Source: a virus (Duplodnaviria > Caudoviricetes). Taken from it: DNA of 64,000 nucleotides. Made by a program: the position numbers and the translations under genes. The stretch spans positions 1 through 64,000 of IMG/VR virus record IMGVR_UViG_3300005805_000064; one strand, given 5' to 3'. The first letter of the stretch is position 1, and every line of letters begins with the position of its first letter. The notes beneath the pieces were generated by a model, which searched no databases, had not been told where the DNA came from, and worked only from the letters and a program-made list of their open reading frames with translations. Below, piece by piece: positions 16,649 through 51,790 of the stretch.

Positions 16649-17275
16649 TCATTTATAGAAATCTTCGAAATCTATCATAAACGATCCACCCGCACCGTAA
16701 CTATCACCTGAAAAATTATAGGGCTCAAAGCAAGTCCAGGGCATGATAATCAGATAACCCATTCTCTCTTTGGTAACTTTTTCTACATAGTGATGGGAAT
16801 AGTGAGAATTTAACCAAAAGGCCCCGCTGTATTTTTTCACAGGAGCCTGATAAGTTATATTATTCTGTTTATCTATGAAGGTAGTGCCCTGCTCACAGTC
16901 TTGCATGTGCAATACTCCGCTCAAGAAAAACACTTTAGGATCTTCGTGCAACCCTTGCTGCCAGCCTATTTCATCTTTAAATACTGCTATATTGACTTTT
17001 GTATTGTCTAAAACTGTTTTAGGAACTATGGGCCAAGTATGAAAAAAATTTTTATGTGAGAATAATAATGGTACTATTTTATGATAAATTAAATTCTCAA
17101 AATATGATCTCACCTGCTCCGTGACTTCTCCGGAGTCCAAGTATCTATTTTTTCCTTCATCCGTAGCGTACCCGGGTTTTGCCTCAAAACCGGATGATTG
17201 GTGAATATCAAAAGCCAAATCATAACATTCTACGACTGGATGAATAAGTTCGGTTACTAGTCTAAGTTTTTCCAT
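16649..17275 (-). CDS. Putative 2OG-Fe(II) oxygenase
   Basis: GLHED (HxD), SGVLHM, GTTF, SHHYVE, ERMG pattern of a DSBH fold. Confidence 0.6.
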   Translation of the reverse strand: MEKLRLVTELIHPVVECYDLAFDIHQSSGFEAKPGYATDEGKNRYLDSGEVTEQVRSYFENLIYHKIVPLLFSHKNFFHTWPIVPKTVLDNTKVNIAVFKDEIGWQQGLHEDPKVFFLSGVLHMQDCEQGTTFIDKQNNITYQAPVKKYSGAFWLNSHYSHHYVEKVTKERMGYLIIMPWTCFEPYNFSGDSYGAGGSFMIDFEDFYK

Positions 17276-17280
17276 GCAAA

Positions 17281-17288
17281 TATTTATA
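17281..17288 (-). promoter_or_regulatory. T4-type late promoter TATAAATA
   Basis: Exact TATAAATA 5 nt before the ATG at 17275. Confidence 0.65.
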
Positions 17289-17290
17289 AA

Positions 17291-17316
17291 AGAAAAGGCT
17301 CCGAAGAGCCTTTTCT
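17291..17316 (-). terminator. Intrinsic terminator ending the tmRNA transcript
   Basis: AGAAAAGGCTC-TTCG-GAGCCTTTTCT (C-UUCG-G tetraloop), followed by T-rich sequence. Confidence 0.88.
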
Positions 17317-17317
17317 G

Positions 17318-17591
17318 ACTATTGGTTTATAAGGCGTCACCCCCATCTAGCCTTGTTTAGGCGGCTAGAGCGTAAACATCATCGTTTGCGTTTACTTTGT
17401 TTTGCTAGAATTACGTTCTTCGCCTTCCGGATCGTCTGCTCCGCTACTCTTTGCCCTGTCGAAACCAGGTCCGGCCCATCAAATAATCTCTCAGCCGACC
17501 CTAGGGTATTCTACGGAGAGAGACCATTTGGTGGACCGGGCGGGAATCGAACCCGCGTCCAGAACACTTTTCTCTTCACTTCTTACGATCA
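17318..17591 (-). ncRNA. ssrA: Circularly permuted (two-piece) tmRNA, tag (A)ANDDVYALAA
   Basis: Minus-strand order: acceptor piece ending GGACGCGGGTTCGATTCCCGCCCGGTCCACCA (3' end 17529), 51-nt intervening segment, coding piece starting GGGCCGGACCTGGTTTCGACAGGG (17477), tag ORF 17389-17357. 7-bp acceptor stem with G3.U70 and A73. Outer boundaries approximate. Confidence 0.93.
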
Positions 17592-17918
17592 TAAATCCTT
17601 ACAAGTTCGTTCTTTATATATCTTTCCATCTTCGGTCATAATCTCTTTCCAGTCAGTACACACTTTACCTTTTGTAACCTGCTCTTCTTTTTCTTTAGCC
17701 TGAGCATCTGCGATCACCGCACCTATGATCACACCACCCACCAATGGTACTACCCAATCATTATGACGATGTACTATGATAGGAGCATGCCTATGTATGT
17801 GATGTATATGACGATGACCATGACCGTGAAAATGACGATGGCCATTGATATGAACCTGATGTGCAAATGCCGGTGCTGCTATAACTAAACTAATGAGTCC
17901 TGCTAAAAGTGCTTTCAT
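17589..17918 (-). CDS. His-rich exported/membrane protein
   Basis: Signal peptide ending AFA, 14 His in 33 residues, hydrophobic GGVIIGAVIA segment, C-terminal Cys pair. Confidence 0.7.
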   Translation of the reverse strand: MKALLAGLISLVIAAPAFAHQVHINGHRHFHGHGHRHIHHIHRHAPIIVHRHNDWVVPLVGGVIIGAVIADAQAKEKEEQVTKGKVCTDWKEIMTEDGKIYKERTCKDL

Positions 17919-17942: not shown

Positions 17943-19211
17943 TCACTTTTCAAATTCTATTAAACTATCTGATATTACATATTGATTATTGTTTTTTCTA
18001 AACACCCATATGGGTTCAATAAAGACGCTATTCTTATCTGTATTTACTATCGCGTGAGGCCTAGCCTGCATACGCATACCGATCTTACCGATATAATTAG
18101 CGCCTATGCTTACTAGATGATCTACCATATCATCACAAAGATTCAGTCTAGTTCCCTTGCTGATCCTCGGTTCGATTATATTGATCATCATGTATGCATT
18201 ATCTTTTAACGCACTAAAGACCTTTTCGTTGACAGGGAAAAAGAAATCATTTTTCCAACTATCGAAAGATTGATATCTGTGCCAACTTTGTGTAGAACTG
18301 TGTTCTTTGGCATAGCGTTCAGTCTCAAAGTAAGGAGGACTTGTAAAATAAAAATCGAAAGTGTTTTCATATTTTTTCCAATCAAGGTCTTCACTAGGAA
18401 GATTATATATTACTACTTTCTTGCTACCTATGCAAATGAAATGATCACCGTTATCTTGTAATACAGCAGCGTCATAACCTAGCATGTTCTCATACTCTAA
18501 GCATTGATCCTTGTATGACTCATAGACTTCAGGATTAGGATCACAACCTACATACAACTCAGTACCATATGTAGCATAGAAGCCTGCTAATCTATCGCCC
18601 CAACCACAACTAGTATCTAACACTTTTCGTGCTTTATGTTTCTCATATAATGCCTTTGCGACACTAGGCTTGAATTGTGTAGCAGTATATGTACCTATAC
18701 GAAATGCACTACGAAATGCGCTGGCATCGATATCGCTATTTCCTAACGCTCCTTCTCGCCAGAAGTGCCAATTCATCTTCTCTAATTTTTCACGACTGTG
18801 CCATATGTCCCATGGACTATCGACAAGATTGCTACCGCACTTCATGCGATTAGTTTGTTGGAAGTAATTGCTGACGCTATTGTAGACATGAGACTTGTCG
18901 ATCACGCCCAGTGGCTTATCAGCATACTTGTACTTGTAATCGAATTTCTCTAATACAGTATCAAAGTGTTTATACTCACCTAGCATACTTGTCTTACAGA
19001 ACCGTTCGAACAAATCTACAAACTCGTTATAAGATATCTGCCTAGATGGAAAAGGAATATTGTTTGCTATGATGTATTCTGCGAGGTTCTCTTTGATCAT
19101 ATCCTTGTCATGGGATTGTATGAACTGTAGCCAGTCTTTGTTAGGCACATAGGGTATGCCACGACTATCGCTATGAAATTGAAAGAACTTCTGAATATTT
19201 GGATCGATCAT
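17943..19211 (-). CDS. Amino-DNA methyltransferase (N4-C/N6-A type)
   Basis: Motif I variant VLDTSCGWGDRL and motif IV FTSPPYF. Confidence 0.82.
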   Translation of the reverse strand: MIDPNIQKFFQFHSDSRGIPYVPNKDWLQFIQSHDKDMIKENLAEYIIANNIPFPSRQISYNEFVDLFERFCKTSMLGEYKHFDTVLEKFDYKYKYADKPLGVIDKSHVYNSVSNYFQQTNRMKCGSNLVDSPWDIWHSREKLEKMNWHFWREGALGNSDIDASAFRSAFRIGTYTATQFKPSVAKALYEKHKARKVLDTSCGWGDRLAGFYATYGTELYVGCDPNPEVYESYKDQCLEYENMLGYDAAVLQDNGDHFICIGSKKVVIYNLPSEDLDWKKYENTFDFYFTSPPYFETERYAKEHSSTQSWHRYQSFDSWKNDFFFPVNEKVFSALKDNAYMMINIIEPRISKGTRLNLCDDMVDHLVSIGANYIGKIGMRMQARPHAIVNTDKNSVFIEPIWVFRKNNNQYVISDSLIEFEK

Positions 19212-19248: not shown

Positions 19249-19318
19249 CGCTTCGGCTTGGATTCGAACCTTGTCCATAGTCTTATCGATCTGTACTTCC
19301 CACAGTACTGACCGAAGC
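19249..19318 (-). other. tRNA-like element (degenerate, no assignable anticodon)
   Basis: 7-bp acceptor stem GCTTCGG/CCGAAGC, D-stem GTAC/GTAC, GGTTCGAATCC T-loop; T-stem has 2 mismatches, anticodon arm short and unpaired, no CCA. Confidence 0.55.
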
Positions 19319-19322
19319 TTTT

Positions 19323-19402
19323 TTCTGGTTTGTCTCTGTAGTTCCGGAAACTACTTGACCCTCAAACTAAGCCATCGCTGTGCGACAAACACTACACCAG
19401 AA
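19323..19402 (-). ncRNA. Putative structured ncRNA of unknown family
   Basis: Outer stems TTCTGG/CCAGAA and GTTTGTC/GACAAAC, inner hairpin GTAGTT-TCCGG-AACTAC; TATAAATA just upstream. Confidence 0.45.
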
Positions 19403-19420
19403 GGTTGTGCGGCTGAATGT

Positions 19421-19428
19421 TATTTATA
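19421..19428 (-). promoter_or_regulatory. T4-type late promoter TATAAATA upstream of the structured RNA
   Basis: Exact TATAAATA overlapping the ugd stop codon. Confidence 0.6.
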
Positions 19429-51782: not shown

Positions 51783-51790
51783 TATTTATA
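51783..51790 (-). promoter_or_regulatory. T4-type late promoter TATAAATA heading the modification island
   Basis: Exact TATAAATA 18 nt upstream of the ATG at 51764. Confidence 0.65.

Follow-up and report, generated by a model that had tools for sequence, protein, structure and literature searches.

Introduction

The locus examined here raises the question of whether a virus carries a working two-piece tmRNA gene of its own and, if it does, where this gene came from and how its RNA would be made and used. The window, i.e., the whole 64,000-nt stretch of DNA analysed in this study, comprises bases 1-64000 of an 85,267-nt IMG/VR virus record. An earlier note, made from the letters of the DNA, had described a circularly permuted, minimal tmRNA in it. 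Phage tmRNAs known in 2014 were one-piece molecules (Hudson et al. 2014, PMC4131195). Buchholz et al. (2022) then screened 18,146 phage genomes and obtained 133 unique tmRNAs, 53 of them two-piece by ARAGORN (PMC9004378). The same study described the two-piece ssrA of Methylophilales phage Melnitz, catalogued pelagimyophages among the phages with two-piece tmRNAs, and listed in its supplementary table permuted forms from Stenotrophomonas phages Moby, Mendera and YB07, the 385-kb Xanthomonas phage XacN1 and Caulobacter phage Ccr29 (PMC9004378). A tmRNA database paper of 2025 holds 79 bacteriophage sequences (PMC11915505). The two-piece tmRNA of phages is a known kind, jumbo phage XacN1 included, and the present gene is a further, uncultured example. 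As argued below, it is very probably a working ssrA gene of the phage, circularly permuted and betaproteobacterial in its architecture, and it resides in a Rak2/Atu_ph07-like jumbo myovirus.

A complete permuted tmRNA gene of the betaproteobacterial type

ARAGORN reported a permuted tmRNA at 17266-17621 on the minus strand with the tag ANDDVYALAA*, and this was the sole RNA gene that it called in the 64-kb window and in the entire 85-kb record. Two Rfam families matched the same place on the minus strand: beta_tmRNA (RF01850) at 17291-17653, with 137.7 bits against a cut-off of 84 (E = 6e-42), the match running end to end over model positions 1-331; and tmRNA_permuted (RF04321) at 17357-17590, with 140.3 bits against a cut-off of 47 (E = 2e-27), over model positions 1-213. 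Such E-values exclude a chance resemblance to tmRNA. All of the features listed by the earlier note were located where it had placed them, and the reading works on the minus strand only. Standard tools detect such permuted phage genes outright. The parts of the gene are as follows.

17529..17590, minus strand: tmRNA acceptor piece, 62 nt, with the 5' strands of the inter-piece helices, the T-arm (GCGGG/UUCGAUU/CCCGC), CCGGUCC, A73 and an encoded CCA (Rfam RF04321 and RF01850 alignments, ARAGORN, pattern anchoring)
17478..17528, minus strand: intervening segment, 51 nt, presumably removed on maturation (pattern anchoring, fold)
17291..17477, minus strand: tmRNA coding piece, with GGGCCGG, the D-loop analogue, the 3' strands of the inter-piece helices, the pk1-region hairpin, the tag frame, the stop-codon hairpin and the terminator
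17404-17423, minus strand: pk1-region hairpin, inside the coding piece
17357..17389, minus strand: tag reading frame, from the GCA resume codon to UAA, encoding ANDDVYALAA (ARAGORN, Rfam alignment)
17347..17368, minus strand: CUAGCC/GGCUAG hairpin with the UAA stop in its loop (fold; aligned to the beta_tmRNA consensus)
17291..17316, minus strand: intrinsic terminator with a UUCG loop (fold; stem kept by compensatory changes in the related contig L012)

The gene order is that of RF04321 members: the T-arm and the 3' strand of the acceptor with the CCA position come first, followed by the intervening segment and then by the 5' strand of the acceptor with the coding part. The order of acceptor piece, 51-nt spacer and coding piece had been recognized in the earlier note, and the spacer measures exactly 51 nt (17528-17478). 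The tRNA-like domain is of the alanine type, with a 7-bp acceptor stem containing G3.U70, followed by A73, a T-arm and the D-loop analogue GGUUUCGAC. The proposed GGGCCGG/CCGGTCC stem pairs throughout (G1-C72, G2-C71, G3.U70, C4-G69, C5-G68, G6-C67 and G7-C66). The tag frame (17389-17357) opens with a GCA alanine resume codon, ends on an in-frame UAA and encodes a hydrophobic C-terminal degron; the tag ANDDVYALAA is as first read, and its stop does lie in the loop of the CTAGCC/GGCTAG hairpin. The UUCG terminator, which the earlier note had placed ~50 nt after the stop, was found at 17316-17291, about 43 nt past it. When the precursor is folded by minimum free energy, the T-arm, the stop-codon hairpin and the terminator all form, as does the acceptor stem, on which the hairpin of the spacer stacks.

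The full-length match to RF01850 includes the lineage-specific 3' part of that family, namely the stop-codon hairpin, the GGGG..CCUU element and the terminator. This bears on the description of the RNA as minimal, with most of pk2-pk4 absent. The short 3' part is real, but it is the normal beta_tmRNA form with no further reduction: bacterial members have an equally short 3' part lacking pk2-pk4, as judged from the Rfam model and the sampled bacterial copies, and the term "minimal" is overstated because the RNA aligns to the entire model.

Likeness to the betaproteobacterial two-piece tmRNA (RF01850) thus extends to the inter-piece helices, the pk1 region, the AND... tag, the stop codon in a hairpin, the GGGG..CCUU element and the terminator. 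The nearest bacterial copies (Accumulibacter-like, L047 and L053) also share the GCGGG T-stem and the encoded CCA with the window. Compared with betaproteobacterial copies, however, the window has the acceptor GGGCCGG instead of GGGGGUG, a spacer of 51 nt instead of 2-42 nt, and a purine-rich strand in place of a local hairpin of the acceptor piece, and the similarity amounts to about 67-78% over 110-150 nt.

Conservation and covariation of the RNA

An alignment of 50 distinct sequences (20 metagenomic viral, 6 cultured phage and 24 bacterial), anchored independently of the covariance models, was used to examine how the RNA has changed. Acceptor pairs 1-3 are invariant in the 50 sequences, save for two cells of one mis-registered row (L006). 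A73 belongs to the search pattern that selected the homologues, so that its constancy is not an independent observation. Acceptor pairs 4-6 alternate between G-C, C-G, U-A and A-U while remaining 98-100% canonical, and compensatory substitutions, with 96-100% canonical pairing, occur in acceptor pairs 4-7, in the T stem and in both inter-piece helices. All T-stem pairs are canonical (100%) and alternate between G-C and A-U or between C-G and G-C. The alanine identity set is fixed, while the remaining acceptor stem is freely rewritten among close relatives.

The two pieces had been proposed to pair with each other, and the comparison bears this out: GUUCUG/CAGGGC and GAUCG/CGAUC both appear in the Rfam alignment and covary across the 50 homologues. 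The terminal inter-piece helix is GAUCG/CGAUC here, UGCUG/CAGCA, CGCUG/CAGCG or UGUUG/CAACA in other phages, and GGUUG/CAACC in bacteria (96-100% canonical). The P2a helix is 96-100% canonical as well, with several pair types per position. These two covariation-backed helices join the two pieces as they do in RF04321 members. One modelled middle inter-piece helix (GAAG/CGGA) is non-canonical in the window, which has purine-rich strands instead.

Within the coding piece, the stem of the pk1-region hairpin differs in a compensatory manner between the window (AGAA/UUCU), L012 (CUGA/UCAG) and bacteria (CGGA/UCCG), and the terminator stem also changes in compensatory fashion. The pk1 hairpin GCGAAGAA/UUCUAGC covaries and the other pk1 stem has 2-3 bp; the tools used model no pseudoknots. 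Among the 30+ viral copies, the tag frame is intact in all and the resume context is conserved; most copies keep AND at the start and [YF]A[LIMV]AA at the end, and the middle of the tag varies. Taken as a whole, these features are what selection for alanylation, two-piece assembly and tagging would be expected to leave in an RNA.

The same observations bear on the possibility that the RNA is a decoy, titrating host SmpB or competing with host tmRNA and thereby damping host trans-translation. A pure decoy would need no resume context, tag frame, stop-codon hairpin or ALAA end, and yet this full mRNA-like domain is kept across divergent phage copies. The idea draws on mycobacteriophage DS6A, for whose form, consisting of the tRNA-like domain only, such a role has been proposed; a phage form of this kind is reported to inhibit tmRNA. 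The acceptor stem of the present gene is also unusual, and no smpB was found in the 85-kb record, an uninformative result since the record covers about 22% of the genome. A decoy seems very unlikely to us, and a functional ssrA remains the preferred reading.

The gene resides in a jumbo phage

CheckV estimates the record to be about 22% complete, which at 85,267 nt implies a genome of several hundred kb, the CheckV estimate being about 390 kb. The minus strand carries 59 of the 63 ORFs, among them ORFs of 2248 and 6288 aa. A virion structural protein is encoded at 639-1907 (phrog_1645, 1e-84), and a baseplate module at 73-85 kb of the record encodes a baseplate wedge (phrog_10646, 7e-254), a hub/lysozyme protein and more virion proteins. 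The best cultured relatives of the wedge protein, ~33% identical, are those of Rak2/GAP32-type and Atu_ph07/Phosso-type jumbo myoviruses. The source is an uncultured Rak2/Atu_ph07-like jumbo myovirus, which adds one more such phage to those with a ribosome-rescue RNA of their own. The 79-kb contig L012 has the same gene order around the tmRNA, and synteny of the locus is also seen in L160, L162 and L166. The type of the tmRNA and the COG2908 motif described below weakly hint at a betaproteobacterial host.

The attribution of the tmRNA to the phage, already made in the earlier note, is upheld by structural genes on both sides, by the single direction of the genes and by the synteny in related phage contigs. 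The flanking structural genes in particular show that it is phage-encoded, not a host gene at a prophage junction. A host origin could also take the form of an attP core or of a recent, decaying capture of ssrA or a fragment of it; integration at ssrA is common, 3' fragments of this gene are frequent in phages (PMC9004378), and the record is an incomplete linear contig. The gene is, however, complete, and the compensatory changes described above argue against decay. The relationships of its sequence, considered next, speak against a host origin as well.

Two further observations concern the phage context. The 6288-aa ORF (54553-73419, minus strand, partly past the window) lies between a radical-SAM operon and the baseplate genes. 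In a related viral contig (L019, 600-5470), 15 tRNA genes adjoin a tmRNA of the same type with the tag ANDDVYAMAA, whereas the 85-kb record has zero tRNA genes.

Relationship to viral and bacterial tmRNAs

The exact 32-nt T-arm-plus-acceptor sequence is present in 27 IMG/VR contigs, which were themselves picked by this GGGCCGG-stem 32-mer. ARAGORN called a permuted tmRNA in 26 of the 27, the remaining one (L010) being permuted by pattern anchoring, and all 11 of these contigs that were scanned with Rfam gave the beta_tmRNA type. A search of about 185,000 bacterial and archaeal species genomes gave no occurrence of this 32-mer, and the GGGCCGG start of the coding piece is absent from 802 genomes (401 + 401, from the class and the order around one bacterium with a permuted tmRNA). 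When bacterial tmRNA 3' ends were sampled by a looser pattern, the acceptor was of the GGGG type in 120 of 120; C4-G69 and C5-G68 of the window depart from the GGGG start of every sampled bacterial tmRNA. Roughly 25 of those sampled are permuted (Azonexus, Dechloromonas, Thauera, Accumulibacter and others) and have GGGGGUG/CACCUCC stems, spacers of 2-42 nt and tags of the form ANDE[QR]FA[ILVM]AA. Bacterial members score 235-313 bits with RF01850, as against 138 bits for the window.

A maximum-likelihood tree, from which the T-arm and acceptor columns were left out, contains a branch that separates every one of the 24 bacterial copies from every phage copy (88/99 support, rough values from a short alignment). 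A recent host capture would be expected to fall inside the sampled bacterial (Rhodocyclaceae-type) cluster, and the window copy does not. The phage genes stand apart from the sampled bacterial ones. With the absence of its 32-mer and of its coding-piece start from the bacterial genomes searched, and with this split, hardly any credence can be given to host ssrA as the source of the gene, and we return to a phage-borne ssrA.

The closest tmRNAs of all were those of same-locus contigs reached via the leader motif. The tmRNA of L162 is 81% identical overall and 90% identical outside the tRNA-like domain, and the tags of L160 and L166 are identical to that of the window. These same-locus relatives (L156, L160, L162, L164 and L166) carry GGGGAUG/CAUCUCC with the T-loop UGCGAAU (UGCGAUU in L166). 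A virus-only deep clade defined by the GGGCCGG acceptor had been considered and was rejected on this account. Judged by these comparisons, the GGGCCGG stem appears to be a labile module and not a clade marker, of a type unseen in the searched bacteria.

A putative late transcription unit

The earlier note had found no separate promoter and had suggested processing from the upstream mRNA. A consensus scan of the region upstream likewise yielded no sigma70-type promoter facing the tmRNA. A -10-like TATAAA, which Rfam aligns to the bacterial promoter region, was considered as part of a sigma70 promoter of the gene itself and was discarded; it reads TACAAG in L012 and is not conserved. The surrounding features are the following.

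19421..19428, minus strand: TATAAATA box, candidate start of the unit that ends at the tmRNA terminator (match to the T4 late-promoter consensus)
19250..19414, minus strand: structured leader, made up of the COG2908 RNA (19414-19370), a variable hairpin and a 69-nt tRNA-sized element (19318-19250) (Rfam, comparison)
17943..19211, minus strand: 422-aa ORF between the leader RNA and the small ORF, absent from L012
17589..17918, minus strand: gene of a 109-aa His-rich small protein, its TGA stop overlapping the first tmRNA helix; conserved in L012
17281..17288, minus strand: TATAAATA box between the tmRNA terminator, which it follows directly, and the next gene (16649-17275) (motif scan)
51783-51790, minus strand: TATAAATA box heading the 32-kb radical-SAM operon (motif scan)

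The sequence TATAAATA is the consensus of T4 late promoters. It is rarer than expected (3 in 64 kb vs about 8), and all three occurrences are intergenic and on the coding (minus) strand, with two of the three bracketing the unit from the leader to the tmRNA terminator. By analogy, it would be a T4-type late promoter of the phage. Since one box stands 6 nt before the COG2908 match (19414-19370, 71.9 bits) and another follows right after the terminator, the region from 19428 to 17291 is read as one putative transcription unit, comprising the leader RNA, the 422-aa ORF, the 109-aa ORF, the tmRNA and its terminator. L012 shares the box, the leader, the small ORF and the tmRNA without the 422-aa ORF. 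That the nearest promoter-like box lies 1.8 kb upstream and that the stop of an ORF overlaps the RNA support processing from a longer transcript, and the suggestion of the earlier note is plausible. The window copy seemingly depends on such processing.

The 109-aa ORF is a real gene, as L012 keeps a version that is 75% identical over 65 residues and that likewise lies immediately 5' of the tmRNA. Its product has a signal-peptide-like N-terminus, a His-rich stretch HRHFHGHGHRHIHHIHRH, a hydrophobic helix and a conserved, Cys-containing C-terminus; searches against Pfam and PHROG gave no match. It could be a metal-binding envelope protein.

The leader is part of a conserved unit of ~185 nt that directly follows TATAAATA in the window (19250-19428, minus strand), in L012 (12390-12571, minus strand) and in L156-L167. 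It consists of the COG2908 match, a hairpin whose stem differs in a compensatory way among contigs, an A-rich linker and a nearly invariant 69-nt element. The latter has a 7-bp GCUUCGG/CCGAAGC closing stem, a 4-bp D-arm-like hairpin, the T-loop-like motif GGUUCGAAUCC and no anticodon stem. Between the window and L012, the leader units are about 93% identical and the tmRNAs about 75%. The COG2908 motif is listed as cis-regulatory in Rfam, and no discussion of it was found in the literature searched. A sensitive Rfam search for known RNAs in the leader gave COG2908 alone, leaving the tRNA-sized element unmatched, and ARAGORN calls no tRNA there; the fold energy of the leader is no better than that of shuffled sequence (z-score 0.06), i.e., it carries no thermodynamic signal. 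Fourteen viral contigs have the leader unit, and a permuted tmRNA follows 0.4-2.8 kb downstream in 7 of the 14. The unit may be a stand-alone phage RNA gene rather than a leader.

The intervening segment

The 51-nt spacer of the window folds into an 11-bp hairpin stacked on the acceptor stem. It is the shortest among the 27 viral contigs with the GGGCCGG stem, where spacers range from 51 to 279 nt, and the only ORF found in it has 8 codons and lacks a Shine-Dalgarno sequence.

Protein-coding sequence was noticed inside the tmRNA spacer of L012 (11900-11990, minus strand) and of L006, L007, L009, L010, L013-L017, L156, L160, L162, L164 and L166. The spacers of some relatives contain Shine-Dalgarno-preceded ORFs of 23-24 aa for hydrophobic peptides ending in FAI(V/I)LL, and those of others contain ORFs of 31, 37, 64 and 84 aa. 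In the L160/L162 group, the spacer frame is conserved at the protein level (PRNLFYTEREW.R.VGWG), with synonymous-type changes.

Discussion

The course of expression, processing, charging and tagging that the sequence predicts is as follows. The RNA would lie at the 3' end of a longer phage transcript, probably a late one, from which host tRNA-processing enzymes would release it: RNase P would cut at the GGG with which the coding piece opens, and trimming from the 3' side would stop at the encoded CCA. The 51-nt hairpin spacer would be discarded, and the acceptor stem and two more helices would keep the acceptor piece (62 nt) and the coding piece (roughly 185 nt) together. Host AlaRS would charge the RNA via G3.U70 and A73. 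Together with host SmpB and EF-Tu, the RNA would then enter stalled ribosomes, add ANDDVYALAA and free them, the tagged products passing to host ClpXP-type proteases. The likely benefit would be that ribosome-rescue capacity is maintained through a long jumbo-phage infection. The earlier note had put forward a more specific role, as a substitute for a host ssrA that defence nucleases have cut; this is speculative.

A working tmRNA might instead serve mainly to retarget proteolysis through a phage-specific tag or through its timing, e.g., by recycling host proteins, rather than serve general rescue. This was suggested for phage Melnitz (PMC9004378), and it would suit the variable middle of the tag among phage copies and the apparent position of the gene in a late transcription unit. 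The C-terminal degron is nevertheless the ordinary proteobacterial YALAA, and the sequence holds nothing that separates this role from plain rescue. We regard it as very unlikely and favour ribosome rescue by a functional phage ssrA.

The observations can also be drawn together into a broader picture, which is possible but rather doubtful and is offered tentatively: the two-piece tmRNAs of phages may form a long-standing, virus-maintained lineage and not a set of repeated host captures; this lineage may evolve in modules, with exchange of the acceptor and T-loop and with the spacer as a slot for small genes; and the RNA may be cut from the 3' end of a late mRNA that begins with the conserved 185-nt structured leader (COG2908 motif plus tRNA-sized element). 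The acceptor/T-loop module is GGGCCGG with UUCGAUU here and GGGGAUG with UGCGAAU in L162, which is otherwise 90% identical. If true, this picture would tie ribosome rescue to the late phase of infection. Of greater interest than the gene as such are the apparent modular exchange of the acceptor, the spacers with genes in them in relatives, and the conserved leader. The group also provides a convenient natural series in which to ask what a tmRNA must offer to AlaRS, RNase P and SmpB.

Among previously known phage tmRNAs, the one-piece ones (mycobacteriophage cluster C, e.g., Bxz1, and Bacillus phage G; PMC4131195) are likewise phage ssrA genes without smpB nearby, but they are standard in order and have pseudoknots, whereas that of the window is permuted. 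The Melnitz copy is of the alphaproteobacterial type and is associated with a glutamine riboswitch (PMC9004378), whereas the window copy is of the beta type and apparently lacks a promoter of its own. Searches of cultured phages by blastn gave no match over more than about 23% of the length of the tmRNA gene. Permuted genes were confirmed in Moby, XacN1, BUDD, X1, JGB6 and Bordetella phage PHB04. These have in common with the window an encoded CCA and a stem-closed intervening segment, theirs being 71-127 nt long. They also have the same T-arm (GCGGG stem, UUCGAUU loop), save for PHB04 with its UUCAAUU T-loop, and XacN1 and BUDD/X1 share C4-G69 with the window. In the GenBank records of JGB6 (L150), BUDD (L151), X1 (L155), XacN1 (L153) and PHB04 (L154), the tmRNA is unannotated or overlaid by a "hypothetical protein" CDS; among Stenotrophomonas phage records, some annotate the permuted tmRNA and others do not.
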